A stretch of 62,197 nucleotides of DNA, counting the filler, from Jimgerdemannia flammicorona (Eukaryota): NCBI GenBank assembly GCA_003990765.1. It is 3 parts of 3 records of this genome, joined end to end, with 100 filler letters (N's around TTAATTAATTAA, not from the genome) between each part and the next. Parts side by side here need not be neighbours in the genome. Positions count along the whole stretch, not along the records: positions 20,768 to 41,433 come from RBNJ01001622.1; 2 more parts are not named here. One strand, given 5' to 3'. The notes beneath the pieces are model-generated. The model ran no database searches and was not told the DNA's origin. It saw only the letters and a program-made list of their open reading frames with translations. Positions 9,241-62,197 of the stretch are shown piece after piece. How positions within the stretch are numbered: position 1 is the stretch's first letter; each line of letters starts with the position of its first letter. A program made the translations under genes and the position numbers.

Positions 9241-9583
9241 TATAATGACTACCTATAAGGTTCTAGTCTATGAATTATAACAGTATATTCTATAACTAGC
9301 AGACAATCTGTCTGGACTATTCTCTAAGGGATACAGTACTAGCAACTACTCATCTATGAGACTTTTGAAGTTAGAGGAGTTTGAACTGTCAACTAATTAA
9401 CCAAGATCAGAATCAGGCTCTTGCTCTATATGAAGAGAGTGATCCTTCACTATCATACCAAAATATATAAGAAAGATACTAGCCTATAAATACCTTCTGG
9501 CAGAGATTATAGGATCAGAAAAATTTTCAAACTAGATCAATGAATAAGAATGTTTAAGAAAAGATCATTATTTAGGAAGAAGA

Positions 9584-12607: not shown

Positions 12608-12611
12608 GATA

Positions 12612-15600: not shown

Positions 15601-17772
15601 GGTGGTTGTCTGGGGTTCCAGTATGACTTCTTCTACTGTGGCAATGTCTATTCCAGCTGTATTTTCTGACTTATATTCTGGCAGAACTGCATCAGGGTGG
15701 GTTCTTTGAATCTTGACATTGATTTCTTCATCATCACTATCCTCCAGGAGGGCTGGTGGTTCATCATCTTCCTCCTCCTTTTCTTCTCTGACCTGTTTTT
15801 TGAGAGCCTTCTGTCATCTTTTCTGGTAAATCTTTCTGATTCTGATGGTGCATTGATAGCAATTATTGATATGCTCCATACAGTACATCTTGATTCTGTG
15901 AGGACAGACTCCTTGTGGTACATAGCCTTCTGCAATCTTCTTGCACCATTCTTCTTCACTCATCCATCCTACTTTTCTCTTCGGAATAGTTATCATATAA
16001 GCTTCCTCCTGCTCACTCTCTTCTTCCTCTATGTCAGGCAAGACTCCTTTGTTGACATTGATGGGAATTCGTATCCTCTGTCCCCAGTAGGTGAATTGCA
16101 TCTTCTGGGCATTGAGATCAATTACTGCTCTGGCTTTGTGAAGCTATTGATTGCCGATGAGGATGTCATAGTTGGTAGCATTGGTTACAATTATGTCTAC
16201 TGGGATGGTTACTCCTCTGATCTTAATGGGGACATCTCAGATCTTTCCCAGAGGGGTGGCTCTTGTATCATCTGCTGTGACAAATACTAACTTGGTTACT
16301 TCTTCAATCTCTCAACCTAGGCAGTCTGCTGCCTTCTTGCTGAGAAGACATCCTCCTGCTCCAGTATTGATGATGGCTTCAAAGACTCTATCTTTGATTT
16401 GGCATATTACATAGGCAGAGGTTTTGAGATTGTCTTCACTTTCTTCTCCTGAGTCCTCTTGAATGTTATTGGCCTTGGTTATCTTCCATCCTTACTCCTT
16501 GGTTGTTTCAGTAAGTCTGAAACTCATTTGTTATCTAAATGTTGGGATTTCTGCGAGCTGACCAAAGGTTGCATTGACCTTTTATTGGCTAAGGTCCTTG
16601 AAGATATTGTACTTAAAAGTCTTGGTCTTGCGAAGTTTCTTTTCTTTTTCTCCTTTGCTGGCTGGGGTAGTTCCTTAGATAATATCTTAAACTGCTTGCT
16701 CCAGCTCCATATCTTGGTCCATCTCTTCAGCTTGGCTTTTGGTGGCCATTTCCATCTACTTTTCTACTGGGTTCTTCTTGGGTCTTCCTGGTGGTCACTT
16801 GTAGGGTTCCTTGTGAACATCCTTCTTAGTAGTCTGAGCAGGATAGGCCTCTCATTCTTCTTCATCAGAGTCTCCAATTTCCTTGAAGGTAATTGTATTG
16901 GCCTGCTCCTTGTTTCATGTAGCATTGCTTGGTTGAGCCTTATGCTTAGTTTTGCTCATACATTCATAGGAGTAGTGGCCTTCTTCTCTACAAGTATAGC
17001 AGGTGCCTTTCTTCTTGTCTGAGGTGGCAGCAAACTTCTGGACAGAGCAGCAGTCTCTTCCTCTGATCTTCTTTACTACATCTCCCAAGTGGGCAGTCAT
17101 TTCTACGAACCTCTTAGTAAGTTCTTTCAAAGGGTCACTGTTCTTTTGCTGCTCTGTAGCTTTGAGCTAAAGTGTGTTTTGATTGAACATTATGGTGGGG
17201 ATCATACTGGTTGACTTAGGTGCCTTGATTCTGACTTCTGTAACTCTCTCCATTGTATGGTCTTATGAGTATCTGACTATCCAGTATTGCTGAGCATAGG
17301 TGACCTTCTGTGGTAGATCCAGAATCACTGGTGATAAGCAGATGGTCATAGCTATTTCTGGGTGGACTCCTTTCATGAAGGTTGCTTCAGCTACTTGATC
17401 TCAGATAGCAGCAGCATAATCTGCAAGAATTATCTCATATCAAATTCTGGTATAGAATGTGTTTGGATCCTCACTCATTCCTTGGCATGTTGTGTTGAAC
17501 TAATCCTTTAGGGCTTGCTTGATCTCATCTGTATAGTATGTATTTCAGAGCCAGGTCTTCTGTGCTGTCAGTATAGCATCAGCATCATTTACTGCATGGG
17601 TTGTGGCTGTGAATGCTGCTCTGGCAGGACCTCATAGGCTGAAGGGCATGAGGGCTACTTGCTGTACTGCTGTCAGGGTCCTTACAGTGGCATATTGCTC
17701 GAAATCATCAATGAAGGTGATGATTGATTCATCTGAAATATATCCATGGAATACTGGTGGTCTCATATCCAT
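12612..17772 (-). pseudogene. gag-pol of gypsy element 2, with dUTPase at ~15320-15700
   Basis: ORF-track fragments 14665-15408, 14422-14664, 13801-14022 and 13001-13204 carry dUTPase C-terminus/RT, RT, RNase H and integrase motifs. Confidence 0.9.
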
Positions 17773-18050
17773 CTTATCTGGATATTGGCATGGTTGTTCA
17801 GGTAGAGACAGTTGTTTATTGTTCAGCTTGAAAGTGAGGAATTTATCTTGAATTACCAGCAAATGGGCACCAAGTTGTAATGTAGCAGATGCTTACTCTT
17901 GAAAGTATGTCAGATTTCTATATCTTGAAAACTTAACTGTTCTGACTCTCACAGAGTCTCTTGAGTTACAGGGGAGGGTAGGTGAGTTCAAAGTGTATCT
18001 GCGTATAAGCTTACTAGTTCCTTTGCTATCTCTTTGCTTTGAACTATTTC

Positions 18051-19352: not shown

Positions 19353-20667
19353 CATCTTTCTCCGGTAACATTCAGGTTACACAACCCTTTGGCAACACTT
19401 TCGACACAGTTTCTGAAGAAAAGCTACTAGTTTCATAGAGACCAACGAGCATCCGGAGGTGCATACTGGGCAGGGTGGCCCTGGAGCATTTGGATGGCAG
19501 TATGTGGGGAGAGGTCCTGGCTTGGGGGGAAGCATGAGGGGCCTGCTGGCAGGAGGACGTGGTGGAGGAGGAGATAGGGCTGGAGGGCAAGGGTTGGCTG
19601 GCGACAATGGGGGAAGGTCTGGGCTCCTGAGCTTCGTGGACAAGGTCAAGGGGAGTGGGTGGCCGACTAGGAGTAGGGCTGGTTCTGCTGAGGGAAAGGG
19701 CAAGGTGAGCCTAGGGAGGGGGGGTAGTGCTCTGGCTGGGGGTGCAGGAGTAGGGGTTGGAGGAGCGGTGGCTGGGGGTGTGACTGCTGATGGGGGCATG
19801 ATAGGGAATCAGCAAAAAAAAAGAGATGTGATGGCTGATGGCCAGGGGGCGCAGGGGGTCCCGATGAGGAAGGGGGACCTGGCCGATGGTGTTATAGGGC
19901 TGGCGGTGGCACCATTACTCAAGAAGTCGATCTCGGAGTTTGCAGTAACTCTGTGCTTCTGAGGCTTAGGGGTGACAGCGAGGATGGTCTTGGGGCTTAT
20001 CTCAAAGCAGGTGGCTGGGGCAGCTTCAGTGAAATTTCTGAGGGGTCTGGAGGGAGTTGAGGTGGACTTTGAGGAGGCGGGCCTACTGGAAGAGGCACTG
20101 AGGGCAGGAGTGGCAGTTGGCGAGATGGTGGTCCCCATGGTACGCTGTTTGAGGTGGGACCCCAGGGTGGTGCAGCTGCTAGTGAAGGGGGTGCCCACAG
20201 TGACAAAGGAGGAGACGAGAAGGAGGATAGAGGAGGTGATGGCAGAGTATGGAGATGTGGTGGATATTGGCTTCCAGGTGTGGGAGGAGATGATGATCAG
20301 GACTGGCGATGTTGATGTCAGGATTCGTCTAGCAGGGAGGGAGGCCACAGGGAAGGCTGGTGACTGGCCCTCAGTGTTGATGTGGGGGGCCTTCATTTGT
20401 AAGGTATCGAGAGTGAAGGGGAGCGAGGAGGAGGAGGAGGATTTGTTGGAGGCATTAGAGGAGATGAGTGGTGCAGTGGAGTGGCGGGCGAAGGCCTGGA
20501 AGCTTTATGAGGAGTCGATGCACTTGGAGATTGTGGAGGGGAAGCATATCCACACTGACAAGAGGCAGTGGGAGAGGGCTCAGGGGCGCTTGAGACAGAG
20601 GGAGCTCTTGGCGAGTATGACTGGAGGGGAGAAGAGGAAGGTTGGTGGGGCTGATGGGTCTGGAGGT
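19353..20667 (+). mobile_element. 5' end and ORF1 of an L1/Tx1-like LINE inserted into copia RT; truncated by contig end
   Basis: Starts CATCTTTCTCCGGTAACATTCAGG, like the copies at ~34079, 48279 and 60069. Its Gly-rich ORF1 is homologous to the ORF1 that precedes APE-RT in contig 3. Confidence 0.85.
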
Positions 20668-20767
20668 NNNNNNNNNNNNNNNNNNNNNNNNNNNNNNNNN
20701 NNNNNNNNNNNTTAATTAATTAANNNNNNNNNNNNNNNNNNNNNNNNNNNNNNNNNNNNNNNNNNNN
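20668..20767. other. Artificial contig spacer (N44-TTAATTAATTAA-N44)
   Basis: 100-bp N block with a six-frame-stop linker; flanking contigs have near-identical, descending lengths. Confidence 0.97.
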
Positions 20768-22269: not shown

Positions 22270-23688
22270 ATGGTTCTTCAAGTCTCGAATCCGAACAATG
22301 TGAAAATATACACCGTCTCCGGCGGAATTGGCTCTCGCTCAATACCAGATTGGCTGGCCCGGCGGAAGAGGAGGGCATTAAAGAATGACATTGGTCAGTC
22401 CTCATTTTGGCTTTTCTGGATTTATCCCGAGGCCGAGTTCCGGAGAGAGCCGATATGCTAATGCCGTTGACTGTAAACCATTATAGATTGGCGCTCTCGT
22501 GTCGAGTTAATTCAAGATTTCGAATTCCCGGAGGCGTCGAACAGGATTAAGACGACACGGGACGGGAAGTTTGTGGTGGCGACAGGTGAGAATTGTTGTT
22601 CAATATGTCCCTGCGACATTTTTCGTGATATGCCCTCTTTTTATGACAATGGTCTGAACCCTTTTTTAAACCTGTTGATTTCGGTTCTTCCAGGAGTTTA
22701 TAAACCACAGATGCGCGTATACGAGTACGCGGAGATGTCGATGAAGTTTGATCGGCATACGGACGCGGAGAACGTCAATTTTGAGGTGTGCTTCAATGTC
22801 GTCGTCTCAATTAAGATTTTTTATTTTTAGTTTTTATTCCAATACTTTGCTATTTCAAAATCTCTATCAGATTTTATCGGACGACTGGACAAAACAAGTA
22901 CTATTACAAAATGATAGATCGATAGAGTTCCATGCACAGGGCGGCATTCATTACAGAACTCGCATTCCAAAGGTGATTTTCCTTAATATATCAACCGCAT
23001 GTCGTTTGGGATTATCTCCCCAACTTTTATAAGTCGCGCTTATATTGACCTACTCACCGCGCCATGTATTACCTACCAAAGTTCGGCCGCGACCTCAGTT
23101 ACCACTTCTCGACATGCGACCTTCTTGTCGTTGGAGCAGGGCCTGAAGTATACCGCCTCAACCTGGATCAAGGTCGGTTCCTGAACCCGCTTATCACGGA
23201 TTCCGCCTCGGGTATCAACGTCTCGGAGATCAACCCGGCGCACCAGCTTTTCGGCTTCGGTACCGTGCAGGGGACCGTCGAGTTCTGGGATCCGCGGTCG
23301 AGGGCGCGCGTAGGCGTTCTGGTGCCCCAGGTCAACACGTTCGGGGGAGCGAGCACCGCGGAGATGGAGGTCACTGCCCTCAAGTACAGGACCGACGGGT
23401 TAAGCTTGGCAGTGGGGACGTCGACTGGGCACACGCTACTATACGATCTGAGGAGTTCGAGGCCGTGGCTGGTGAAGGATCATCAGTATGGGTTTGAAAT
23501 TAGGAGCTTGAATTGGCATGATGGCGGCGGGCAGGGTGTGGACGAGGGCGGGAAGGTCATAGTGGCGGATAAGAAAATCATCAAGATTTGGGATCGGAAT
23601 AACGTAAGTGTAGAACGGGCATCGGTTCCGTTGGCATCTGTGTAATGATGTGACTCCGAAATTTTGCCATTCTTTTCTAATTCATCAC

Positions 23689-23724
<36 letters not shown>

Positions 23725-25392
23725 CATGTATCATTACCATTGCAGGGCGAACATTTCACCTCGATTGAACCCGCCACGGACATCAATGACGTCTGCCTGG
23801 TGGAGTCCTCGGGTGTCCTGTTTGTCGCCAACGAGGGCATCCAGATTGGCTCTTACTACATCCCGCAGCTGGGACCCGCCCCCCAATGGTGCACGTTCCT
23901 CGACAACCTGACCGAGGAGATGGAGGAGAATCCGCAGCAGAACGTATATGATGACTACAAATTTGTGACGCGTAAGGAACTGGCGGCATTGGGGCTAGAG
24001 CACCTCATCGGGAGCAATGTTCTCAAAGCGTACATGCATGGCTTCTTTGTCGATTTGCGGTTGTACGAGAAAGTGCGTGTTCATTATATTTTTATTTTTT
24101 CGGTTAAAATATTTTATTTGGTGGGATCTCGCATCCGGCTTTTGTGTTGTATGTTTATCGGCACCAATATTCTATTTATACATTTCATATTATGTGCAGG
24201 CCAAGCTCATCGCGAATCCCTTCGCGTACGACGAGTATCGCGAGCGGGTCATCCGAGACAAGATAGAGAAGGAGCGCGGTTCTCGCATCAGGGCTACGAA
24301 CAAGTTGCCCAAGGTCAACAAGGCCTTAGCGAGGCAGTTACTGGAAGAGGAAGAAAAGAAGAGGCGGAAGGGCAAGTTGGAGGAGGTGAGTAGGAATCGG
24401 AGGTGTGGTTGGGAATTTAGGTTTTTGTTTCTCGTAAAAGTGTAGCGTGGGATAGCCATGCGCGAACGGTGGAAAATATGGATGGCGGATGGGATGGATT
24501 GTAGGAACGCTCAATTGGAAAATTAACCGATTTTGCATCGCAAAAATTGTCATACGTCCACTATATCACAGGGCGCCGCCAACCCGCTCAACGATTCCCG
24601 TTTCAGCGGCATGTTCATGGACAAGGACTTCGAGGTGGATGAGGAAACGGTTGAGTTCAAGCTGTTGCATCCGACCGCGGTAAGATCCTCCTTCTCGCAT
24701 TTCCATCTAATTTCAATTTCATCTGATCTTAGAAAATCCCCTCTGCCTGCAGAAGAAACGTGCAATCGCGTTCGACGAGGAAGCTGACGAGGATGAAGAA
24801 GGTGAGGACGAGCAGACCGTCTCAGGCTCTGACTCGGACCGCCTCACAGACAGCGACAGCGACGACGACCTGGTCGCCAAGATCCGCAAATCGCGCGGGG
24901 ACAAGGGCAAGAAGAAGGCGAAGGCACCGCAGGGGATTAGATCGGCGCCGGACGAGCGGTGGAAGATGAAGGAGAAGACCAAGGGATATAATAAGGAGGA
25001 GGAGAACACTAAGAAGGGGCCGAAAATGGTGGAGATGAAGGTGTGTTGGAGTTTTTGTCCTGATATTACCTTGTGCGGGATACTCAAATTTCAATTGACG
25101 CTTATTATCGTAACGTCATTACCTCCAGGTCGGTGGCTCCACGACGCCGCGTACCTCGTCCAAGACCGCGCGAAAATCGTTCGGCGAGCGTGCCTCGACC
25201 GAACTCGCTGGCTCCTCAGCGCAGGGCCTGCGCGTTTCACGGACAGCCATGGGTGGGATGGAGCTATCGTTCCAGGTGCAGCGGAAAAGGAAAGGTTGGG
25301 AGAAGGCGAAGGAGGAGAGTGGTAGTGGCGGTGGCGGCCCGATGAGGAAGGAGAGGAGGAGCGCGAGTAAGAATGTGTTTAGGAGGATGTAG
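22270..25392 (+). CDS. ENP2: Ribosome biogenesis WD40 protein Enp2/NOL10 (multi-exon)
   Basis: Motifs ELIQDFEFPEAS, GVYKPQMRVYE, LSDDWTK, RLNLDQGRFL, PQLGPAPQWCTFLDNLTEEMEE, YMHGFF, NUC153-like DSRFSGMFMDKDFEVDE and C-terminal RRSASKNVFRRM*. Confidence 0.95.
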
Positions 25393-25535
25393 GGATTGGA
25401 TGTAAGGAGAACGTGTAGAGAATAGAACATTCACCTGATTCAAATTACGCGATCGTGACTGCCCACTAATCACGTGCCAAATTCGTCAACATATAATTGC
25501 TGAGCCACTGTTCTTTCTTTACCGCAAAACCTACC

Positions 25536-26818
25536 ATGGGGAGACACTGCCAAATGGTAATGGGCCCCGCCGGCAGCGGCAAATCCACTTACTGCGCAAC
25601 AATGATGACACACTGCCAGAACGTAGGCCGGACCGTTCATCTCGTTAACTTGGACCCCGCCGCCGAGCGCTTCGAATACCAGCCCACCATTGGTGTGTAT
25701 TTGGGACCTACATGGGGAGGGAGTAATTTTGCTTGTCCCTTGTTCACGTCTCGTATTGTGCACTCATTTCTTTTCTCAATGCATTTGGAAACACGTAGAT
25801 ATCCGCGATCTAATTACCCTTGATGATGTCATGGAGGAGCTACAGTACGGGCCCAACGGTGGTTTGATATACTGTCTTGAGTGAGTATCATGCTTCTCGA
25901 GGGGTTGATTGGCGCATAGATATTGAGACATCGTAGTTCATCACCCCTCACCGTATCCCAGGTTCCTCCTCAACAACATCGACTGGCTTGAGGAGGCGCT
26001 AGGTAGCTATGAAGACGACTACCTCATCTTCGACTGCCCCGGCCAGATCGAGTTGTACACGCACTTTCCGATCATGCGCCGCATCTGCGAAAACCTGCAG
26101 CGGTGGAACTTTGCGATCTGTGGCGTTTACCTGCTCGAGTCGCAGTTTATTGAGGATAAGAGCAAGTACTTCTCCGGCGTCCTCTCCGCCATGTCCGCCA
26201 TGATCAATCTCGAGATCCCCCACGTCAACATCATGACAAAGATGGACCTTATTCAAGGAAAGGCTGGCGCTGTTGGAGTGCATGCGGGAAAGGGGAAGAA
26301 GGCTAAAGGTGGTGGAAGCGAAGGGGCTATGAGAGGAGGGATGAGGAAAAAGGAGTTGGAAAGATATTTGGATCCGGATCCGTTGTTGTTAGTCGAGGAT
26401 GTGAACTCCAAGACGAGCTCGAGATTCCATAGCTTGAATCAAGCAATTGTGCAGTTGGTATGGGTCTCTTTACCCGACTTAAGTTGTCTATTTGTTTATT
26501 TATTGGGAATATTGCGATCATTAGAGGCGGAAAAAAATGATACTTCCGTTACCCTTTCCCTCGATAGATCGAGGACTACAATATGGTGAGCTTCATCCCG
26601 TTGAACAATCAGGACGAGGACTCCGTCAACTATGTTCTCTCACACGTCGACAACGCCATGCAGTACGGCGAGGACCTCGAACCCAAGGTATTCTTTTACT
26701 TCATGCCCGCTTCCGATACCCTAACTCCCTGGTCTCATTCGATGACCCTAACGATCTGTTCCATTCGGTGGTCTTACAGGAACCCAAAAACGAGGGTGAA
26801 TTCGGGGAAGACGATTGA
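25536..26818 (+). CDS. GPN3: GPN-loop GTPase 3 (multi-exon)
   Basis: [51 protein letters not shown] and [12 protein letters not shown]. Confidence 0.93.
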
Positions 26819-33213: not shown

Positions 33214-34078
33214 TATAAGTATATAATCTCCAAGCTACTAAAATCACACATTACCTTTCAAATAAATCTGGAAATTATATGCAAGATCATAAAGCTGAGT
33301 CAAATCAAAATCATAAAGTACAAAGCTAAGTTAACTCAAAGTTATAGAATATAAGACTTATATAAATAAAATCTTACCAATCAGGACCAAATACATATAC
33401 TAAGTTCTTAGATATATCAAAACAAAGAACTACAATAAACTAAACAAATAACTATAACTCTCAAATATATATAACTATGATCACTAAGATCTACAACTGT
33501 ATCTATACTGATATTTGGAATATTATTATTAACTGAGTTATACTTCTCCTATCTCTCATAAATATCTATAATCTAGTACCTCTCTACTTTATAAAAGCTT
33601 GATAGAATGCCCTAAATATACTTAGTGAAGCCTATTGAATTAGATAAATCTCAAGCTACTATTAAATTAGCCACCTCTTAGAAGATATGGTTGAATACTA
33701 CTATAATATAGATATTATTTAGATGTCCTAATACTAGAAACTCATTGCCTATAAATACCAAGAACTCTTCTATAAGTACAGCACCTTTATCTCTCATCTC
33801 TAAGTTATTACTACTGAAATTATTGCTACTCTGTCCTATGGCCAAATCAATGATATAGTATAAAAACTTAACTATAAGTATATTAAGTATATTTAAATTA
33901 TAGATAGAACCTTCCTATACTTTGATAACTATATCCTACAAATGTCTCAAGTTGGATATATCATAAAAGATATCTATAATATATATATATAATCTAGTTT
34001 GATAATAATAAAATAGAAGATAATAATCTCTCTAATACTGATATAATCTCTAACTAAGGATTCCTACCAACTCCAGAC
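33214..34078 (+). mobile_element. Old, heavily C>T/G>A-mutated copy of the LTR at 39174, interrupted by a LINE
   Basis: TATAAGTATATAATCTCC corresponds to TGTAAGCGCACAACCTCC; colinear with 39174 to ~40055. Confidence 0.9.
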
Positions 34079-35080
34079 CTCTTTCTAGTACCATTCAGGT
34101 TATACAACCTTTGGAAGGCACTTTCGATAATGTTTTCAGCAAAAAGAGACTAATAATATGGCAACCGACAGACAACCTGAGGTACGTACTGGGCAGGGCG
34201 GCCCTAGCGCTTTTGACTGACAGTAGGTGGGGAGGGGGCCAGGCCTGGGGGGTGGTATGAGGGGCCTGCTGGCGGGTGGACATGGAAGGGGTGGAGGAGG
34301 TGGTGGAGGATCAGGATCTGGGAGGGCAAGCTTCGTGGAGATGGTGAAGGGGAGGCAGCAGGCATCGGGGCTGGAGAGCTGGCTGAAGAAGGGTAAGGGG
34401 ACCGAGAAGGAGATGGTGCCGGGGGGTGCGGCCCTTGGAAGGGGGGGTGGTGGAGCTGCGGGAGTAGTGGCTGGGGGGGGTGTGACTGCTGATGGTGTTG
34501 GGACTGTCGATCTGGAAAAAAAATCCAGATGTGACAGCTGATGGCGAGGCTGAGCGGCTGAGGCTTAGAAGGCGAGGAGGAAGAAGGCCCAGCGGGAGCC
34601 AAGGGAGTGAACCCAGAGCTAGTGTCAAAGCGAACAGAAGATATGTGGAAGAGCATGTATAAGGGGGACGAACAAAGAACGTAACCGAAAATGCATCAGC
34701 CGTTTATTGCCATATAAAAAACGCGGTCCTTATATACAAAATATGACGTCCCAAAAGGGAGGATGCACCACAACTCGGGGCGAACCGAATTAGGAACCAC
34801 ATGACCGCCGGAGATAGGCAGAGATAAAGGGGGAGCCAATCCCAGTTGCAGGATAAAAATCACAAACAAATACAAACAAAACAAATCAAACCAAATCCAA
34901 ATCGAGATTAAAAAACATCCGCAGACCCCGAAGGGGTGAGCACGAGTGAGGGGTGAGGCCGAAATGGAGTGAGCCGCAGTGAGCCCAAGCGAAGCGAGGG
35001 GCCGAAGGCAGCAGAGGGGAGCGGAGTAAGGCCAAGACCCCGGAGCGAGCGCGAGACCCTGGAGAGGGCAAGGATGTTTT

Positions 35081-37078
35081 TTAATTCTCTCTGGCAGAAC
35101 CGGAGACACCAGAAGGTGATGAAAATGCAAAACAAGAGTGATGGATTGAAGAAGAAATAGAAGGAAGATGCGAACAAGCAATCAGAGGGCATTGGGAAAG
35201 AGATGAAAGTCCATGGCATGAAAGAGAAGAGCGCAGGACGGTATCAGGGTGTTGAGCAACCCAGCGAGCACGATCAAATGGTATGACAAGAATCAGGGGT
35301 GGGAAAGAAGAGGGGGTATGGAGAGGGTAAGGGGGGAGAGAGGGAAGGGAGGGGGGGTAAAGAGGAGAGAGGAGGGAAGCACGAACAATAGACCATTCAA
35401 CAGAAGCAAGCAGATTACAAATGATAGAAATAGGGTAGGCATGACAATGGACTACAAAGTTACCAAGAACCCGAACCGCAGATACCCAGTCAGAACGACA
35501 GGAGCAGCATAATGCAAGATAACGAGCCTCACCACGAACACATTCAAGAAGAGTGCGACGAGGATGATTGGACAAGAAGTCAGGGAACTGTTGGGAACGG
35601 GGAAAACGGGAATAAACAACAGTTCGGAAGGGAGAAAGGGAAATGGAAAGGTCCAAAAAGGGAATACTAGTCATACCGCACACCCAAGTAATAGAATGAT
35701 GGGGAGGGTAGACGCTCAGGAACACACTAGGGATATCAATGTCAGCAACAGCGAAGACAATAAAGTCATCAATGTATCAGCGAAAGAAGATATCCCCAGC
35801 CCGGAATGCAATGGAAAGAGGTGAAGTGATATCACGTAATGCATGCAATTCATGGACCAGGCCAATGAGGTTGGCAAGGGTGGGGGCACAATTCGTACCC
35901 ATGGCAATACCAGAAGTCTGGTGAAAGGAGCCAAGGGCCGACTCAAAATAATTAGAGCTGCAGACGAGGAGTGTAAGCTCAACAATGGAAGCCAGCAAAA
36001 CCGGGGAGTCCAAAGGAAAAACCAAGGAACCCAAGAAGCGAAGGCAATCATCGATCTCATCAAAATGAATAGCAGTATAGAAGGAAGAGAAGTCACCAGA
36101 GGCCAAATGGGAAAAATGGTGAACAGGCACAATGGTGGAGCAGAGAAGGGCGAGCTCCTGAGTATCACAAAGAATAGTATACTCAGGCCCAAGACGGTGT
36201 TGTAAGAGAGCCATCCAGGAGAGAAAGAAATGGGATAACCATTTCGAAATCTCGGTGGTAGGAGAACTATAAGCAGCCGTGATAGGACGCCAAGCCAAAG
36301 TAGGCTTGTGAACTTTAGGAAGAGCATAGAAAACTGGAAGAGAAATATCCGGGGAGGACAAAGAGTCCTAGAAGAAGTTAAAAATGGGGTTCGCAAATGG
36401 GGAATCCGAAAGTGATCTAGCATGAGCCAGAGAAACCCGAAGAAGAGTGAGAACCTCATCCAATCTAAGAGCACTAGGCTCATAAGCCATGGCTCGAAGG
36501 AGGGTGGAAAGGTCATCAAGGTAGAGTGACTTAGGAATAAGTGCAAAACCCTGATTCTTATCAGTGACTGTGAGCAAATGCATAGGCAATTGCTTGACCG
36601 ATTTAAGCGCGATACACATGGCACGGTCCGAAACCAAGCAAGAGCGAGCTCGTCCGGGAACGGACAGTGAGCAAGCCATGTCAAGGAATACGCAGTATGA
36701 AGAGACATTGGGAGGGGGGACCCAATCGCTAGAAACAAAATAGCGAGAGGGCATCTCACCATGATCTTGAAAGAAGATGGCAAGGTCAAGAGCATGACGA
36801 AAATGTGTTAGACGAGCCGGATCAGTGAAGGAGAATTGTGAGGGAGTCGCAGGAAAAACAAAGCGAAGACCCAAGGATAAGGCAAAGACTTGAAGGGGAG
36901 AAAGGGGGCAGTCAGCCGAAGAAAAAGGAGGAGACAAAAGTGTTCCAAGAGAAGAGTAAACCCGAAAGTTTGGGACAAGCAACTGGGAAAGGCGAAGGGG
37001 GGACAACATGAGGAACCACTCAGGATACACCAGAAGCAATGATGGAATCCGAGAAGGGATGGGGACACTGGGGGAGAA
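35081..37078 (-). pseudogene. PLE reverse transcriptase ORF2 (single frame; nonsense codons at 36368-36370 and 35777-35779)
   Basis: ORF-track segments 36368-37039, 35777-36361 and 35081-35725 share one frame. No GIY-YIG motif follows the thumb domain. Confidence 0.87.
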
Positions 37079-37095
37079 CTACACCGGGGGGAAGT

Positions 37096-38313
37096 TTAAG
37101 AGTGGGAGGCCTTCCCCTTCCCTCTGACTTTTTTTGAAGGTGGCAAACTCGACGAATGAGAGCACACCCTGTCAGAGTGCCAGACCTTGCGGCCACAGGC
37201 TTTCGTGCAACCCTTACATTCAGGGGTACGGGGAGAGGAGGTGGAGGAGGAACCGGCGGAGGAAGCTGAAGGTGAGCGAGCAGCCGAAGGGGCAGCAGCA
37301 TGAGGAACACCACCATGGGGACAGACGGACTTGGCCGGGTGCCAGTAGGCACGGTGGAGGCAACTGGAGCAGACAGCACAAGGCCAGGCCCTGACAGGGT
37401 GAGAACCAAGTTGGCGGCCATGCTTGGGGGCAGAGGGAATGGAGGAGGAAGCCTTGGTGGGGGAGGGGGACCGGGAAGAGGCCGACGAAGCCTGGTTGGG
37501 CTTGGCGGGGATCTTGGCGGGGGTCTTGGAGGGGGCCTTGGCAGCGGCAGCAGTGAAGGAACGAACCTCAGCATGAGCAGCAGCACGAGCTTCGGCGCGG
37601 ATGGCCTCGGAGACTGAAACCTCGGGGGAGGTAGGCAGAGGAGCAGTGGCGGCGGCGCGAGCAGCGGCGGCAGTACGAGATGACTCCTGCTCATGAAGGC
37701 GAGCAACAAAAGAGGTGCCGGTGAGGAGGAAGCGATGTACAGCATCGATGTCAGCGGCGACAGAAGGAACATCTTGGATGGTGAAGCCGCAGAAGGGGGC
37801 AGCATCCAAAAGGCAAGAGGAGGCGAAGGCCATGAAAGCGGCACAGGCACATTGGAAGGAGGCGGAAGCAGTGGCGGCGGAAGCAGCGGCGGCATCAGCG
37901 GCAGCGAGCTTGGCGGCGGCAGTGGCAGTACGGACCTCTTCGGAGAGGGCTTGGCGGCGGGTCTCGGGGAGAACAGAGTAGCGGATGGCAGGCGGAGTGA
38001 CGACGTCGATGTCACGGCGGAGACGAGCCTCCTTGGCGGAGAGGGCAAGAACCGACCGGAACTGAGAGAGGAGCGGATGACCAGAAGGACAAAGGTCCAG
38101 GGGGAGGGAAAGGATGGCAGAAGAGACGTAGGTCTCGAAAGAGACAGTGGCGGGGGTGAAGGCAGGGGGAGGGGGAGGAGGAAGTACCTCATCCATAAGC
38201 TCGTCGACGAGGATGGAGGCCCCGAGGGCAGGCGGTACAGCAGAGGAGAAAGAAGGCCCAGCGGGAGCCAAGGGAGCGAACCCAGAGCCAGTGTCAAAGC
38301 AAACGGAAGACAT
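37096..38313 (-). CDS. PLE ORF1, 405 aa: Ala-rich helical region plus two C-terminal Cys/His motifs
   Basis: Intact ATG-initiated ORF whose first ~24 codons are duplicated in all three pLTR copies. Confidence 0.7.
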   Translation of the reverse strand: MSSVCFDTGSGFAPLAPAGPSFSSAVPPALGASILVDELMDEVLPPPPPPAFTPATVSFETYVSSAILSLPLDLCPSGHPLLSQFRSVLALSAKEARLRRDIDVVTPPAIRYSVLPETRRQALSEEVRTATAAAKLAAADAAAASAATASASFQCACAAFMAFASSCLLDAAPFCGFTIQDVPSVAADIDAVHRFLLTGTSFVARLHEQESSRTAAAARAAATAPLPTSPEVSVSEAIRAEARAAAHAEVRSFTAAAAKAPSKTPAKIPAKPNQASSASSRSPSPTKASSSIPSAPKHGRQLGSHPVRAWPCAVCSSCLHRAYWHPAKSVCPHGGVPHAAAPSAARSPSASSAGSSSTSSPRTPECKGCTKACGRKVWHSDRVCSHSSSLPPSKKVRGKGKASHS

Positions 38314-39173
38314 GTGGAAGAGTGTGTATAAGGAGGACGAACAAAGAACGTAACCGAAAATGCATCAGCCATTTATTGCCACATAAAAAACGTGGTCCTT
38401 ATATACAAAATATGACGTCCCAAAAGGGAGGATGCGCCACAACTCGGGGCGAACCAAATTAGGAACCACATGACCGCCGGAGATAGGCGAAGATAAAGGG
38501 GGAGCCAATCCCAGTTGTAGGATAAAAATCACAAACAAACACAAATAAAACAAATTAAACCAAATCCAAATCGAGATTAAAAAACATCTGCAGACCCTAG
38601 AGGGGTGAGCGTGAGCAAGGGGTGAGGCCGAAACGGAGCGAGCTGCAGCGAGCCCGAGCAAAGCGAGGGGCCAAAGGCAGTGGAGAGGAGTGGAGTAAGG
38701 CCGAGACCCCAGAGCGAGCACGAGACCCTGGAGGGGGCAAGGATGTTTTTTAATCTCGATTTGGATTTGGTTTGATTTGTTTTGTTTGTGTTTGTTTGTG
38801 ATTTTTATCCTGCAACTAGGATTGGCTCTCCCTTTATCTCCGCCTATCTCCGGTGGTCATGTGGTTCCTAATTCGGTTCGCCCTGAGTTGTGGCGCATCC
38901 TCCCTTTTGGGACGTCATATTTTGTATATAAGGACTGCGTTTTTTACATGGCAATAAATGGCTGATGCATTTTCGGTTACGTTCTTTGTTCATCCCCCTT
39001 ATACACGCTCTTCCATATGTCTTCTGTTCGCTTTGACACTGGCTCTGGGTTTGCTTCCTTGGTTCCTGCTGGGCCTTCTTCCTCCTCGACTTGGCAGATA
39101 GTGTAATGGGTCTGGCGGTGGCTCCATTACTCAAGAAATCGATTTCGGCATTCACGGTCACACTATGCTTCTG

Positions 39174-41235
39174 TGTAAGCGCACAACCTCCAAGCCACCG
39201 AAATTACACGTCACCCTCTGAACAAGCCACTGAAATCACACGCGATCTCCAAACAAATCTAGAAATCACCTGCTTGATCATGAAGCTGAGTCAAACCAAA
39301 GTCACAGCGCACAAAGCTGAGTCAATACAAAGTCACGGAACACAAGATCTACACAAACGGAACATTACCAATCAGGACCAAATGCATATATACTGAGCAC
39401 CGAGACGCGTCAAGTCAGAGAACCAAAACAAACAACAACCACAACTTCCAAACACACAAACATGACCACTGAGATCTACAACCGCATCCGCGCTGACATT
39501 TGGAATGCCATTGTCAACCGAGCCACACCCCCTCTGCCCCTCATGAATATCCATAGCCTGGCCCCCCTCTACTTCATGGAAGCCCGATGGAATGCCCTGA
39601 ACATGCTTAGCGAGGCCCACCAAATTGGACAAATCTCAAGCTACTACCAGATCGGCCACCTCTTGGAAGACATGGTCGAACACCACCACGATACAGACAT
39701 AACCCAGATGTCTCAACACCAGAAGCTCATCACCCGCAAACATCGAGAACTCTTCTATGAGTACAACACCTTTATTCCCCACCTCCGAGTTACTACTAGT
39801 AAAATGGTTGCTACTCTGTCCTACGGCCAAATCGATGACATGATACAAGAAATCAACCACAAGTACCTTGAGTATGTCGAAACCACAGACAGAACCTTCC
39901 CGCACCCCGATGACCATATCCTGCAAATGCCTCAAGTCATATACGCCATAAAGGACGTCTACGATATAATCCACTTCGATGAAGATGAAGCAGAAGACAA
40001 CGACCCCTCTGATGCCGACATGACCTCTAGCCAAGGATCTCTGCCAACTCTGATCACTCTGCCAACCTTGCCAATGAACCTACAACAGTTCATAACTACC
40101 TACGAAACTTATTGGGACAATGACCACTGGCACGAATACCAACCCGCATTCACCCCCGATTACTTCAACTACAATGAAGAAACCGGAGAACACAACCTGT
40201 ACCTTCAGACAACCCTCGAGATCGAACCAACCACTCCACCACCCGAGTACGAGCGACTTGAACCACAGCCACCAGCTTACTACAACCCCGCGACTCATAG
40301 TGCCATAACCTATAGAAGGTACGCAGACAGCGAATCCGATGAAAGCGAAGACAGTACACCCATCCTTCGCCCAGCAACACCTTATCCAGCATACGAAACA
40401 GATGATGCTATCCTGTGGGACGGAGATGAAGTCCCAATGTATTACTACCTCAGCCAACAAGGAGAAGTAATCCGTGAACCATTATTCCTAGACGACTACT
40501 TCATCAGAGATGATGCAATCGATGGTGATGTCATCGAGGAATACCCAGATAGCGCCTAAACCTATAAATAGTCTAGCAGTTATAGTATAGATAGATTAGC
40601 CTTGTACGACATGACTGTGAACTGACTCAGCAGTCAGACGATCTCTTGACATGTTAGATCACACTTGTACTACGTGACTGCATTCCGACTCAGCAAAGCA
40701 CTTAGTGCTACATCCATATCTAGCATAGTCCAGATAGCCCCTCACTAGTATAAATACCCCCTCACCCAGACCTCAGAATCTCAGACTCAAACACATAAGA
40801 ACATTCCTGAATACTTCCCCACAATATCCCTTCACATAACTACTCCTAGTATAGCAATATCATGAATAGCGAATAAACCTATTTCATAATCCACAAACCA
40901 CTCTTAAGTAAATCCGCTCTCTGTTAGGTCTTACTCCTAACCCTGTCACGAAATTTCCTAATTGGGTATTGTCTGCAGCGATACGCCAATTCAACTAAGC
41001 TGGCCTTAGTTTCTTGAACTTCCTGAAATACGGAAAATCCTGAACATTCAGAACTAGTCCGGAAAAGGACTTTGGTTGAGACGTCAACCGGATCTTGAAA
41101 TCAATAAGCGTAGAGGACGTACTCCATACGAAATTGATCTTGACCATAAGAAAACAGTCTTCCAGAACATCCAGAATATCCAGAAAACCCTACTAGAACT
41201 ACGTAACGGTCACCCTAAAAAGTAACCCTCTTACA
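39174..41235 (+). mobile_element. 2062-bp 5' LTR of a young LTR retrotransposon; internal region truncated at 41433
   Basis: TGTAAG...CTTACA inverted termini. The left end is confirmed by the interrupted LINE and by the old copy at 33214. TATA-like TATAAATA at ~40563 and ~40750, AATAAA at 40872; the PBS follows. Confidence 0.88.
39462..40559 (+). CDS. Intact 365-aa accessory protein encoded inside the LTR (helical N-terminal domain, acidic Pro/Tyr-rich tail)
   Basis: Uninterrupted ATG-initiated ORF with C-rich third positions; homologous motifs occur in other elements of the window. Confidence 0.8.
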   Translation: MTTEIYNRIRADIWNAIVNRATPPLPLMNIHSLAPLYFMEARWNALNMLSEAHQIGQISSYYQIGHLLEDMVEHHHDTDITQMSQHQKLITRKHRELFYEYNTFIPHLRVTTSKMVATLSYGQIDDMIQEINHKYLEYVETTDRTFPHPDDHILQMPQVIYAIKDVYDIIHFDEDEAEDNDPSDADMTSSQGSLPTLITLPTLPMNLQQFITTYETYWDNDHWHEYQPAFTPDYFNYNEETGEHNLYLQTTLEIEPTTPPPEYERLEPQPPAYYNPATHSAITYRRYADSESDESEDSTPILRPATPYPAYETDDAILWDGDEVPMYYYLSQQGEVIREPLFLDDYFIRDDAIDGDVIEEYPDSA

Positions 41236-41238
41236 ACT

Positions 41239-41250
41239 TGGTAGCAGCGG
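41239..41250 (+). promoter_or_regulatory. Primer binding site TGGTAGCAGCGG (initiator tRNA-Met-like)
   Basis: Lies 3 nt after the LTR end; TGGTAGC is complementary to the 3' end of eukaryotic iMet tRNA. Confidence 0.75.
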
Positions 41251-41433
41251 TTTACAATCCAATTCCACTTCAAGACACTTCCTCACCCCGCTACAAACCC
41301 CTCTGAGAATTCCTACAAGTTGGTATAAAGCCCAACCTCTGAACTGGAATTTATCCTGAACCATCTGACAATCTGGAGAGAATTGAACCTGACGTACAAG
41401 GACAATTTGACCTCCACACCTGCAACAAGTGGG

Positions 41434-41533
41434 NNNNNNNNNNNNNNNNNNNNNNNNNNNNNNNNNNNNNNNNNNNNTTAATTAATTAANNNNNNNNNNN
41501 NNNNNNNNNNNNNNNNNNNNNNNNNNNNNNNNN
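41434..41533. other. Artificial contig spacer (N44-TTAATTAATTAA-N44)
   Basis: Identical to the spacer at 20668-20767. Confidence 0.97.
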
Positions 41534-53982: not shown

Positions 53983-56900
53983 GATCTGTTTACACTGGTA
54001 AGTTCTTTATTTTTCTGATTTACTTCCTATTTATTTTCGATTTCATTTTGATTTCTGATTCCTAATTATGTTTCTGTTTGTTTATTCTAAATATATATCT
54101 TAGATGTGCAATATATTTTTTTTGGTATCTTGTAGCTTAAAGGCAGATTAAAGATGGGTCTGTGTTAGGTTAAATATGGGTCAGGGTTGGGTCATGTATA
54201 TTTCTTGGGTTGGGTTAAAGATGGATTATATACAATTCTGGGTTGGGTTAAAGATGAGTAACAAATAATTCTGAGTCAGATTAAAGATGGGTGATATATA
54301 ATTCCAGGTTAGGTTAAAGATGGGTGATATATATTTCTGGTTTGGGTTAAAGATGGGTGATCTATAATTCTGAGTTGGGTTAAATATGTACACAGGTCAG
54401 CTTGGGTTGCAATGCACTAGGCTGGGGACAGTAGTGTGACTACTGATTGAGATATAATGGGAAATCTGAAAAAAAAAAAAGATGTGATGACTGATAGTGG
54501 TAATATACAGGGGGACTATAAGGGGCAGAGAAATCTGGCTAATAGTGTGATGGGCCTGGTGGTGGCCCCATTACTCAAGAAATTGATCTCAGAGTTTGTG
54601 GTCATTTGTACTTCTGGAGCTTAGCAGTAATGGCAAAGATTGTCCTGGAACTGATCTTGAAGCAGATGGCTGAAGCTGCCTCAGTGAAGTTCCTGAAGGG
54701 GCTTGAGAGAGTAGAGGTGGGCTTTGAGAAGGCTACTCTCTTGGAGGAAGCATTGAAGGCAGGACTGACTGTAGGTGAGATAGTGGTTCCAATGACTTGC
54801 TGTCTAAGGTGAGACCTCAGAGTGGTCTAGCTACTAGTAAAGAGAGTGTCTATAGTGATGATTATTGAGACAAGGAGGCAGATAGAGGAGGTTATGATAG
54901 AGTATAGTGAGATGGTTGATATTGGTTTTCAGGTCTGGGAGAGGACTTCATTCAGGACAGAGGATGTGGATATCAGACTCAGGCTAGCTGGGAAGGAGGC
55001 TACAGGGAAGCTGTGAGACTGGCTCTCTATTTTGATGTGGGGTGCATTTATCTGCAAGATAATGAGAGTGAAGTAGAGTATAGAGGGGAGGAGGATCTGG
55101 TAGAGGCACTGGAGGAGCTCAGTGGGGTGATGGAGTGGCAGACCAAGGCTTAGCAGACATATGTAGACTTGATACACTTGGAGGTAGTGTATGAAAAGTG
55201 CATTCAGGTAGAAAAGGAGCAGTGAGAGATGGCTCAGGGGCATAAGCAGTAGAGGAAGTTGCTGGATAGTTTGTAGGAGAAGGAGAAAGAGAAAGAGAAG
55301 GATTTATTCAGTTCTGAGAGGGCTGTAGGGGTGTATGAGAGAGTGTCTGGGCAGATGAGGTGGTGGAGAGGAGTACAAAGCCTGTGAGAGGGAGTTGAGA
55401 GGTGAGAGATCAGACTCTCTATAATGATAGCATGCTGGAGATATGGAAAGAGAGTGAGGATATAGAAGGGTGATCTGGAGTTGTACAGCCAAAGACTGGT
55501 GAGGATGTGGAGATGTTGGGGACTTGCCATGTTCGATTTGGGGTGCCTGAGTTGACAAGTGGGGGACAGGTGATTGAGGTTGGAGAGAATGAGCTGGTGG
55601 ATATTTCTGAGGAGGAGTGGAATAATTCTCTGAGTGCTGGGACAGATGTGGTGATACTGGGGGCAGGCCAACCAGTGACCCCTGGGGGCAAGAAGGTTGG
55701 GGACTTACAGTAGATGTGCTGGGTGATGAATAACTTAGGAGTTGAGAAGTTGGGGGATGTAACCTTACAAGTCATCAGCAAGGAGCACTGGGCAAGAGTG
55801 CTGAGGGGAGATGGTATTGTGGAGGCCCTGGCAATTGAGGTGCTAGCAGTGTTCCTGGATGAGGTGGATGAGGCATAGAAGGCTGAGATGGCAGTGGCTA
55901 CTAGTGAGCATGCTGTCTTTTGGTTAGAGCAGAGACATGGACTGAAAATCTGGCAAGGGGCTTGCTGGAGTACTGAGAGGAGATGGAGTTGAAGAATGAT
56001 GCAGCAATAGATGAGCTTTTGGTTTGACTGAAAGCTAAGCAGATTGAGGGGATAGAGGCTGCTGCAGAACATAGATTGGACTTGGCTAGAGAGGAGATTA
56101 ATATGGAGTTGTGAAGAGAATACTTCTATTTTAATATTCTTTCCTATAAACAGGACAACTAATATTTTTTCATTGAATGTAAATGGCTTGAGGGGCACTG
56201 AGAGGAGATATAACATTTTTACTTGACTAAAGAGATTGGATGCAGATCTCTTTCTTCTATAGGATATATAATGTGAGGAGGACTTTGATCAACTAGAGTA
56301 GACTAGAGAATGGGAAGGAGCAGTAGCTTGGAATAGCAAGGTTGGGATACTGATACAGAAAGAGTAAAGTGAAATATATGATAGCAGAAATTGGGGGGAT
56401 TGGCTGGTTTGGAGTAAATGGCAGCAGCCAGGGTGGGAGATAATTGTGGTTAGATCTTGTTATTGTCCTACAGTTAGGAGTAAGCAGGTGGATTTGATTG
56501 CTGGTCTTTTGGATATTGAAGTGCTCATGGAGGCTGGATTGAATATACTTGGAGGAGACTTAAATATGGTTTGTATGCAACAGTTGGACAGGACAGATAT
56601 AGGGAGGAATATAGGGGGGAGAAGTGGCAGCTTGGAGAGTTGGGAGGAGGTGGAGCAAATTGAGTCCTTAGTGGATACTGGTCAAGCAAAGTGGTGAGAT
56701 AGGAGGCTCTATACTCATTGGGTGGGTGGTCTTGGAACTAGGATTGACTGGGTGCTGACAGCCAATTGCTGGGTTCTGAATGTCTGGAAGTCTCTAGAGA
56801 TTGAGTGGTGTCTATGATCAGATCATTATAGATTGCTGGGATATGGTACATTTGGAGAAAGTGGAGATGGGTCTGGATATTAGTGCCTCAATTCCTCTTT

Positions 56901-60068: not shown

Positions 60069-62197
60069 CATCTTTCTCCAGTAACATTCAGGTTATACAA
60101 CCTTCTAGCAATACTTACAATATAGTTTTTGGAGAAAAGATACTAGTATCATAGTGACCAATGAGTATTCCAAGATGTATACTGGGCAGGATGGCCCTGG
60201 TACATTGACTGACAGTATATGAGAAGGGGCCCCAGCTTGGGGGGAAGCATGAGGGACCTGCTGGCAGGAGGATGTGGTAGGGGAGGGGGCAGTGCTGGAG
60301 GCCAGGGACAGAGGGAGAAAGCTTTGCAGATAAGGTGAAGGGGGGTCAGCAGAGAGCTAGACTGGAGGGTTGGCTTAGAAGAGGCAAGAAGACAGAAAAG
60401 ACTGCTAGGTAGGGGCCTCAAGAGAGAGTCCCTCTGAGGGGCCAGAGTGGTGGGGCTAGTGGTGTAGCAGCTGAGTGAATGACTGCTAATGGGAGTATAA
60501 TAAGCAATCTGGAAAAAAATCTAAATAGGACTGCTGATGGTGGACTGAGCTATGGGAAAGGCATGAGACCTAGTGACCCAGCTGATGGTATAATGGGCTT
60601 AGCAGTGGTGCCATTACTCAAGAAGTTGATCTCAGAGTTTGCAGTTACATTATACTTCTAGGGCTTAGTAGTGACAGTGAAAATGGCCTTGGGGCTGATT
60701 GCAAAGCAGATGGATGGAGCAGTATCAGTGAAGTTCCTGAGGGGCTTGGAAGGAGTGGAGGTGGGCTTTGATGAGACTGAGTCTTTGGAAGCTGCACTAA
60801 AGACAGGGTTGACTTTTGGAGAGATGTGTGTTCTGATGGCATAATACTTGAGGTGAGACCCCAGGGTGGTGTAACTTCTGGTAAAAGGAGTGCCCACAGT
60901 AATGGCTATAGAGATGAGGAGAAGAGTGGTTGAGGTTATGGCAGAGTATGGAGAGGTGGTTGATATTGGCTGTCAAGTCTGGGAAGAGACCTCATTCAGG
61001 ATAGGGAATATTGATATTTGACTTTAGCTGGTAGAGAGGAAGGCTACTAGGAAGACTTGTGATTGGCCATCAGTGATGGTGTGGGGGTCCTTTATGTGCA
61101 AGGTGATGAGGGTAAAGGAGAGTGAGGAGGAGGAGGAGAATTTGTTGGAGATATTGGAGGAGATGAGTGGAGTGATAGAGCAGAGGGAAAAGGCTTGAAA
61201 GGAGTTTGTAGAGTCAACACATTTGGAGATTGTGGATGGGAAGCATGTCTGCATTAACAAGAGACTAATGGAGAGGTCTCAAGGACACAAGAGGCAGAGA
61301 GAGTTGTTGGTGGGCCTGGATGAAAGGGCAAAGAAGGATGCTGGTAGCATTGAGGAGTCTGGGGGTGCAAAAGCAAGTGCCTGGAAGAGTATAGGTAGAG
61401 GGGATGTAGAGAAGGGTCTGGATGAGGCTGAGAAGGTGTTGAGCAGTGATCAATATGAGGATGGTACATTTGAAGTCTGGGAGGATACTCTCTTTCTTAT
61501 CAGATGGAGTCCTGCTGCTATAAGGGACTGGATGGTAGAGGATATATCTATATATAGTGCCCAGCAAGTGTACATTGGAGTTCCTGAGATAACAAAAGGG
61601 GGACAAGTGGTAGTAGTTGTGAGAATGAACTGGTGGATGTCCTGGGGGTGGAGTGGGATGAGACTGCAAGTATAGGGGCAGATATCTCAATGCTGAGTAC
61701 AGGTAGGCCAGCGACACCATGGGGGAAGGAAGTGGGAAACCTACTCTGGGTGTGCAGAATGATGAACAACTTTATGGCTGAAGAGTTGGGTGAAGTAGAC
61801 CTGAGAGAATGAGTGATGAGCAATGGGCACAGATCCTGCATAGTGATGGAGTGGTAGAGGTACTGAAGGCAGAGGTGCTTGTGATTTTCCTAGAGAAGGA
61901 AGGGTATGAGGTTGATAAGGAAAGGGAGGCCAAACTGGTGATTGGTGTTGGTGAGAGGGCAGCCTTCTGTTGGGCAGAGCATTATGAATTACAGCTCTGG
62001 CAGGAGGCCTGCCTAGAGTATTGTAAGAAATTTGAGGAAAAGGAGGATAGAGAGATGGCTGAACTTCTGGTTGGATTGGAGACAAAGAAGGCCAAAGAGG
62101 AGGGATTGGCTGTGGAACACAACTTGGACTTAGCATAGAAGGAGATGAATGTGGATTTGTAGAGGATGTGTATAATGCTTAACATTATTCTTTTTTT
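60069..62197 (+). mobile_element. Further LINE copy: 5' end and degenerate ORF1, truncated by contig end
   Basis: Starts CATCTTTCTCCAGTAACATTCAGG; colinear with 19353-20667 and 54420-56140. Confidence 0.88.

Follow-up and report, generated by a model that had tools for sequence, protein, structure and literature searches.

The window analyzed here is a 62,197-nucleotide stretch of fungal DNA from assembly GCA_003990765.1. At 39174-41235 it carries what is very likely a long terminal repeat (LTR) of a retrotransposon, with an open reading frame (ORF) of 365 codons lying entirely inside it. The balance of the evidence favors a 5' LTR of a young element, in which the LTR is a composite that includes an accessory gene under selection. 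The window consists of three contigs joined at two linkers of the form N44-TTAATTAATTAA-N44 (20668-20767 and 41434-41533). The TTAATTAATTAA linker gives a stop in all frames, and features on its two sides need not be neighbors in the genome. On the right, the middle contig ends at 41433, shortly past the LTR, so that only 198 nt of the element interior are visible. The features are listed in Table 1.

Table 1. Features of the LTR and of the other parts of the window, with positions in the window
Feature	Position	Strand	Basis
LTR of 2,062 bp, probably the 5' LTR, with the interior of the element cut at the contig end (41433)	39174..41235	+	Termini, depth steps, interrupted repeat
Duplication of ~31-32 nt near the 5' end of the LTR	39191..39254	+	Direct repeat D7
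Tandem pair of 31-nt units, with TGAGTCA in each (39287, 39318)	39283..39345	+	TRF (Tandem Repeats Finder), period 31, 2.0 copies, 84% matches
CCAAT (39368) and TATATA (39387), candidate ORF promoter	39368..39392	+	Motif scan, putative function
ORF of 365 codons, encoding an acidic, Cys-free, apparently orphan protein	39462..40559	+	ATG start, no internal stop
Pair of 41-nt units, 63 nt apart; one contains TGACTCA (40623)	40592..40695	+	Families D2, I1-I3
TATAAA, candidate promoter of the genomic RNA	40749..40754	+	Motif scan, putative function
AATAAA, the only one in the LTR, candidate polyadenylation signal	40872..40877	+	Motif scan, putative function
Internal region, first 198 nt, ATG-free leader	41236..41433	+	No ATG after 40862
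Primer-binding-site-like TGGTAGCAGCGG (TGG-type)	41239..41250	+	3 nt past the LTR end
5' part of the repeat interrupted by the LTR element	38741..39173	+	Inverted repeats I1, I2; alignments
Older copy of the first ~880 nt of the LTR, mutated by repeat-induced point mutation (RIP), truncated, ORF full of stops	33214..34073	+	
NOL10-like beta-propeller frames	23049-24390		Pfam scan
GPN-type (GPN-loop) ATP_bind_1 frame	25927-26586		Pfam scan

The limits of the LTR are marked by its termini and by steps in contig depth. A first-pass annotation of this DNA had proposed an LTR bounded by TGTAAG and CTTACA, and these bounds are confirmed: the short inverted termini are present at 39174-39179 and 41230-41235, and depth steps occur at both edges. 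Independent support came from the Logan contigs of four public runs (X1-X4), which were aligned to 38900-41433 with a recruitment threshold of 80%. Across 39174 the depth rises from 136 to 686 and 1274 in X1, from 5 to 56 and 80 in X2, from 3 to 5 and 32 in X3, and from 3 to 8 and 98 in X4. Across 41235 it drops from 1995 to 766, 502, and 363 in X1, from 92 to 52, 20, and 8 in X2, and from 229 to 48, 20, and 17 in X4; X3 has the left step only, with no clear drop on the right. The ratio of the depth within the LTR to that beyond 41235 is about 3-10, in line with an LTR that has more copies than the adjoining internal sequence. Contigs break exactly at 39174, and the loose ends there carry several unrelated flanks in X3 and X4. 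In five X2 contigs and one X4 contig, the loose ends share a common flank in which a run of 13 purines, AAGAAGGGGAGAG, is followed by T and then by the start of the LTR. This flank is as expected of the polypurine tract that precedes 3' LTRs, and it belongs to other copies of the element rather than to the one in the window. On the other side, one X3 contig diverges right behind 41235.

The sequence that follows the LTR has the appearance of a retrotransposon leader. The primer-binding-site-like sequence fits a ...CCA 3' end together with an initiator acceptor stem of the A1:U72 type, and the primer may be the initiator tRNA. A literature search with the letters of this site returned unrelated primers only, and the window contains no tRNA genes. 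The 198 internal nucleotides are also present in other runs at lower depth (360-500 in X1, compared to about 2,000 in the adjacent LTR), and record 32 of X4 spans 41268-41433 with only five differences. This recurrence suggests that they are an internal leader and not a random flank. Rfam gave no matches at E<=1 over 38800-41433, and the RNA folding of 40780-41260 is unremarkable (z = -0.64). The DNA of the LTR is abundant in several soil metagenomes, as seen in the contigs of the public runs. Pattern scans for related DNA gave 15 and then 339 matches in metagenome contigs and 187 in viral contigs, none of them confirmed; in genome contigs there were 66 matches to the protein pattern, none confirmed, and no matches to a pattern of the LTR end and primer-binding site. 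No full-length element was recovered from the metagenome, viral, or genome contig scans. Another way to view 39174-41235 is as the end of some other repeat, with the ORF as the first gene of that repeat, and the presence of a single complete copy in the window with no paired LTR visible would agree with this. The TG...CA ends, the TGG site 3 nt downstream, the polypurine flank common to two runs, the depth ratio at 41235, and the contig that diverges there all argue against it, and it is very improbable.

The left edge of the LTR is also defined by the repeat that it interrupts. The homology of this repeat to 19876-19961, 54536-54590, and 60581-60659 stops at 39173 or at the base before it, and past this point the copies that are not interrupted run on into unrelated sequence. 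This end point and the start of an older LTR copy at 33214 agree with the edge at 39174 given in the first-pass annotation. That annotation also called the interrupted repeat a LINE (long interspersed nuclear element). The interruption is upheld, but the LINE label is not supported, as none of eight long frames in 34699-38856 matches a reverse-transcriptase (RT) family (E<=5) or another Pfam family at the cut-off. One frame on the minus strand (35780-36367) has RT-like motifs by eye only. The interrupted repeat (34074-39173) forms a head-to-head pair with inverted arms at 38243-38588 and 38742-39087 that are 93% identical, and further copies of it are found at 19356-20511, 34079-34920, 54208-55166, and 60072-61210.

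The older copy of the LTR is a dead, RIP-like derivative. It aligns with 39174-40055, and 202 of its 251 differences are C to T or G to A. It opens with TATAAG, and its flank is quite different from the one at 39174. Within the ORF it has 19 stops, and a tblastn alignment gives 56% over residues 1-169; the start codon is kept. The copy ends abruptly at about 34073 (LTR position ~900), where it abuts a copy of the interrupted repeat. The abutting repeat copy is missing the end that is usually intact in LINE-like elements, and the odd junction is probably a scar of deletion or recombination.

The properties of the ORF make it likely that it is a selected protein-coding gene. The first-pass annotation described a stop-free ORF wholly inside the LTR, and this description stands: the frame begins with ATG 288 nt inside the left edge, ends 676 nt short of the right edge, and encodes 365 amino acids with no internal stop. 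The stop-to-stop frame (39321-40559) comprises 412 codons. The longest frame found when the LTR was shuffled had 250 codons in 2,000 mononucleotide shuffles and 237 codons in 2,000 first-order Markov shuffles; a stop-free frame of 412 codons, compared to at most 250 in 4,000 shuffles, is thus beyond chance. Base use at the first, second, and third codon positions (105, 38, and 49 for G; 99, 88, and 156 for C) is typical of a coding frame.

Selection on the ORF was measured by comparing this copy to the contigs of the four runs, using the 40 best-supported differences, beyond which there were 436 more. Of these best 40, 27 are inside the ORF, and 17 of them are synonymous while 10 are nonsynonymous. 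When the same mutation types are placed at random on the ORF, 6.9 synonymous differences are expected, compared to the 17 of 27 observed (P ~1.5e-5). The ratio of nonsynonymous to synonymous substitution rates (dN/dS), which had been proposed as a check in the first-pass annotation, is roughly 0.2 for these 27 ORF differences among the best 40, and not about 1.

Two related proteins point in the same direction. Among approximately 15 billion predicted proteins that were searched, the only relatives are two metagenomic fragments. P0001 (247 amino acids, from a 998-nt metagenome contig) is 65% identical to residues 115-364 over 250 aligned residues, with only two gaps of two residues each, both in-frame, and its frame is open. 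P0002 (128 amino acids, from a 1,180-nt contig) is 91% identical to residues 1-128 and keeps the start codon. When codons 115-364 were allowed to drift neutrally to 65% identity, the frame stayed open in 1.2% of 1,000 simulations. In addition, 208 of the 250 residues aligned with P0001 (83%) are BLOSUM positives. Neutral drift gives 75 +/- 1.7%, and 83% was reached in none of 1,000 neutral simulations (two transition/transversion ratios, 500 runs each). The test of positives is free of the database bias towards open frames. The excess of synonymous differences and the existence of an open, conservatively substituted relative together suggest purifying selection on the ORF, which in turn suggests an element-encoded accessory protein rather than debris.

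These same results are difficult to reconcile with the ORF being a passenger, either captured or formed de novo, that has no function and is open only through the youth of this copy. A passenger would not be expected to show the synonymous excess or to remain open with conservative substitutions at 65% identity, and the start codon is kept in both P0002 and the old copy. The idea is nevertheless in keeping with an orphan protein that has two relatives among some 15 billion proteins and gives only low-confidence structure models, with the lack of a selection signal in the dead copy, and with the possible occurrence of LTR forms that lack the ORF. On the whole, a passenger is improbable.

The protein appears from sequence comparison to be a lineage-restricted orphan. 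Searches for longer, fused forms gave no matches among 1,154 candidates, and a search for shorter proteins found only P0002 among 34 candidates. No Pfam families match the 365-residue protein at E<=1. The best match among PDB sequences (E 0.2 over 27 residues of a kinetochore protein) was taken as noise, and the ESM Atlas gave no usable match with either the whole protein or residues 1-175. The protein is acidic, as the first-pass annotation had it, with a pI of 4.3 and 66 D+E compared to 19 K+R; it has no Cys and only 8 Gly, and no long hydrophobic stretch is seen by eye. Residues 176-365 contain 21 Pro and 18 Tyr and have a pI of 4.05. The best conservation with P0001 is in short motifs of the C-terminal half. 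Two PPxY-like motifs found in this copy are missing from P0001 and were given no weight.

Structure prediction gave limited information on the protein. AlphaFold2 with a three-row alignment gave a predicted local distance difference test score (pLDDT) of 33.1 and a predicted template modeling score (pTM) of 0.23, and residues 1-175 alone gave a pLDDT of 45.4; both models are too low in confidence for use. They have helices to about residue 175 and little order beyond. The predicted helices of the N-terminal half and the acidic, Pro- and Tyr-rich C-terminal half with its short conserved motifs would suit a host-factor-binding or activator-like role. The more specific suggestion of the first-pass annotation, a transactivator or anti-silencing factor, is speculative.

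Two familiar origins for the protein were also considered, and neither a gag nor a host-gene fragment was found in any search run. The lack of a Pfam match and of Cys, the pI of 4.3, and the ratio of acidic to basic residues rule out a nucleocapsid-like Gag. A host-gene fragment was rejected on the basis of the Pfam result at E<=1 and the absence of longer fused forms among the candidates searched.

Putative control signals are found on both sides of the ORF. On the upstream side, the duplication near the 5' end of the LTR is missing from the old copy (gap 39216-39246) and from one X4 contig, which joins 39220 to 39252. It is followed by the two tandem 31-nt units, which are candidate upstream activating repeats. 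The motif TGASTCA, the core of sites for bZIP proteins of the Gcn4/AP-1 type, occurs three times in the LTR compared to 0.23 expected (P 0.0025). The CCAAT and TATATA motifs are 70-95 nt upstream of the ORF start, and there is no ATG between TATATA and this start. On the downstream side, the two 41-nt units are 71-74% complementary to the upstream 31-nt units, so that the two sets form an inverted repeat bracketing the ORF, and they just precede the downstream TATAAA. Another TATAAA is present at 40563. Given these inverted repeats, the ORF module might be a nested element with terminal inverted repeats, but no target-site duplication was seen on reading their outer edges; duplicated regulatory repeats are the preferred explanation. 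One low-depth X2 contig joins 40865, just before AATAAA, to a RIP-type variant of the first bases of the LTR (39174), which may reflect a nested insertion, LTRs in tandem, or an artifact of assembly.

The position of these signals bears on how the ORF would be expressed. The first-pass annotation assigned the ORF to U3, with expression from the 3' LTR. It is correct that the TATA-like boxes (40563 and 40749) and AATAAA are downstream of the ORF, but placement in U3 is not established by this, as a promoter-like block is also found upstream. The annotation had overlooked the CCAAT at 39368, the TATATA at 39387, and the two 31-nt TGAGTCA repeats. With this block in place, a promoter belonging to the ORF, or a location of the ORF in R, is as plausible as expression from the 3' LTR.

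If the ORF were in U3 and had no promoter of its own, its expression would depend on the 3' LTR copy alone, carried either by the genomic RNA or by a spliced subgenomic RNA. There are retroviral precedents for this in sag of mouse mammary tumor virus (MMTV) and in HIV nef, and the downstream TATAAA and AATAAA are placed as it would predict. Against it are the promoter-like block directly upstream of the ORF and the general behavior of eukaryotic translation, in which the 3'-terminal ORF of an unspliced, polycistronic genomic RNA is normally not translated. Expression solely in this manner is unlikely.

The upstream promoter might also be the sole promoter of the element. In that case U3 would be short, with only some 250 nt from 39174 to ~39420. 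The ORF would fall within a greatly extended R region and would be the cistron nearest the 5' end of the genomic RNA, with use of the poly(A) signal of the 5' LTR producing a short mRNA and read-through producing the genomic RNA. A single AATAAA downstream, an ORF that starts at the first ATG past TATATA, and the CCAAT, TATATA, and TGAGTCA repeats directly upstream are all consistent with such an arrangement. However, R regions are hardly ever as long as the ~1.45 kb that this requires, and the second repeat pair and TATAAA at 40592-40754 are in a position typical of a U3 promoter. In X1, the 3' 0.65 kb of the LTR also has roughly double the depth of the ORF part, in keeping with a core LTR that is separable and carries signals of its own. 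This arrangement, too, is rather unlikely.

The arrangement that best accommodates the signals, and which is reasonably probable, is a composite LTR. The region 39174-41235 would be the 5' LTR of a young LTR retrotransposon that has escaped RIP and was inserted into another repeat. The 5' ~1.4 kb would consist of a promoter-like stretch (the TGAGTCA repeats, CCAAT, and TATATA) and the 365-codon gene. The 3' ~0.65 kb would resemble an ordinary fungal LTR, with TGACTCA-type repeats, TATAAA, a single AATAAA, and a U5-like tail followed by the primer site. In this arrangement, each LTR, including solo LTRs, would be a self-contained transcription unit. The upstream promoter would direct an mRNA of about 1.5 kb from ~39420 to the poly(A) signal of the same LTR, the downstream TATA box would direct the genomic RNA, and the protein would serve the element in trans. 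A self-contained unit is favored by the occurrence of CCAAT, TATA, and TGAGTCA repeats upstream of the ORF and of the only AATAAA downstream.

A stronger form of the composite LTR can be imagined, in which every LTR, many solo LTRs included, is a promoter-ORF-poly(A) cassette. The protein would serve the whole family in trans, perhaps by enhancing transcription via the TGASTCA repeats, which stand before both TATA boxes, or by blunting genome defense, and the system would be a retrotransposon counterpart of MMTV sag. This is a doubtful extension.

Several observations weigh against the composite LTR with a selected gene. The window contains no second LTR, target-site duplication, gag-pol, or full-length element, and the presence of the ORF in both LTRs is deduced from the mechanism of replication and from the polypurine-flank contigs, which share the LTR start. 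The promoters, the use of the poly(A) signal, and the function of the protein are read from sequence. The selection test sets this copy against the majority form, which is a single comparison, and uses the 27 ORF differences among the best 40. P0001 and P0002 are in the protein database only as open frames, which is a form of ascertainment. The first residue of P0001 aligns with M115, P0002 ends at residue 128, and no second full-length protein was seen. In the old copy, the differences that are not of the RIP type include 7 synonymous and 14 nonsynonymous changes, which is no signal of selection; this is expected of a dead copy and adds no support. In X1, the depth over 39155-40599 (~630-1,400) is about half of that over 40600-41194 (~1,000-3,200), and in X3 one contig bears no relation to the LTR upstream of 40505. 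Some variants of the LTR may be devoid of the ORF module. The step in X1 would be explained either by a 3' 0.65 kb that is common to ORF-less variants, or by better conservation of this part, which would recruit more diverged copies at the 80% threshold.

The remainder of the window contains other transposable elements and a small number of host genes. Two RIP-degraded elements of the Ty3/gypsy type are found at 2364-10903 and 11648-18050. The first has direct repeats at 2364-3566 and 9657-10903, about 7.3 kb apart, so that its LTRs are at least 1.2 kb long. The second has direct repeats at 11648-11820 and 17878-18050, 6.2 kb apart. Both encode a dUTPase domain (6220-6648 on the plus strand and 15412-15813 on the minus strand), and matches to RT and RNase H were found only in the second, minus-strand element. 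Neither element has similarity to the ORF-bearing LTR. A Pfam scan of 78 ORFs of at least 110 codons gave family matches for eight, among them the NOL10-like and ATP_bind_1 frames. Ordinary fungal genes are present on the middle contig. Intron-bearing host genes are present at 23049-26586, approximately 13 kb from the LTR. These are housekeeping genes, and the repeat cluster therefore adjoins ordinary host genes. Several stretches are AT-rich with transition-type decay, and judging from this mutation pattern alone, the host would be a RIP-competent ascomycete.

A selected gene within an LTR would have consequences for both the element and its annotation. LTRs are treated as non-coding control modules and are discarded by repeat maskers and gene callers. 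This practice may explain why only two fragmentary relatives were found despite the abundance of the DNA. If the gene is under selection, its dosage would scale with the number of LTRs, solo LTRs would remain coding, and its expression could be separate from that of gag-pol. If the LTRs are cassettes, the dosage of the accessory gene would stay high even after the coding interior has been lost. LTR-encoded proteins would then extend from vertebrate retroviruses to fungal retrotransposons, and the protein would be a candidate for an element-encoded regulator or counter-defense factor in a RIP-active fungus. Even as a passenger, the ORF would be a clean example of modular LTR growth.

The closest known parallels are among the retroviruses. 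MMTV sag is a superantigen ORF in the U3 region of the LTR. Like the fungal ORF, it has more than 300 codons and is located wholly within an unusually long LTR, and for both the location implies copying to both ends of the element and retention in solo LTRs. However, MMTV belongs to the vertebrate retroviruses and encodes in Sag a membrane glycoprotein, while the fungal protein is acidic and matches no Pfam family (E<=1), and in the fungal LTR a promoter-like block precedes the ORF. No relation to Sag or other retroviral accessory proteins was detected in the Pfam search or among PDB sequences, where the best E value was 0.2. The nef gene of HIV and SIV and the bel/bet genes of foamy viruses overlap the U3 region of the 3' LTR. 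They are similar in that accessory coding sequence reaches into U3, but they only overlap it, with a start that is internal to the element and expression that relies on spliced RNAs. In contrast, the whole fungal ORF and the 288 nt upstream of it are inside the LTR.

Retrotransposons also carry extra genes, in a different location. The additional ORFs (aORFs) of LTR retrotransposons are described as internal, for the most part placed after pol and before the 3' LTR and frequently in antisense orientation, with examples in the plant elements Grande, RIRE2, and Retand and in the ascomycete element Boty, where the antisense gene brtn is between pol and the 3' LTR (Vicient & Casacuberta 2020, PMC7264820). 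The brtn gene in BcGypsy1 is likewise described as internal (Porquier et al. 2021, PMC8365987). As in these descriptions, the fungal LTR carries an extra ORF that is conserved in its family, has no assigned function, and has no cellular homolog, and Boty provides an ascomycete case. In contrast to the aORFs described there, it is inside the LTR and in the sense orientation, and it would be present twice per element and in solo LTRs. The crapaud LTRs of Podospora have a variable 5' half and a conserved 3' half, and the account of them describes only gag and pol ORFs (PMC10787394). They share with the present LTR a fungal, RIP-active genome and a modular structure, which resembles the depth step at ~40600, but no coding frame in the LTR is reported in that account. 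A search of one literature collection for retrotransposons whose LTR encloses an entire conserved ORF found none, and such phrases led to MMTV, including a 2022 review (PMC9412291). Overall, comparison with these systems suggests that the ORF is an accessory gene of the kind found in LTR retroelements, placed in this case inside the LTR of a fungal retrotransposon.

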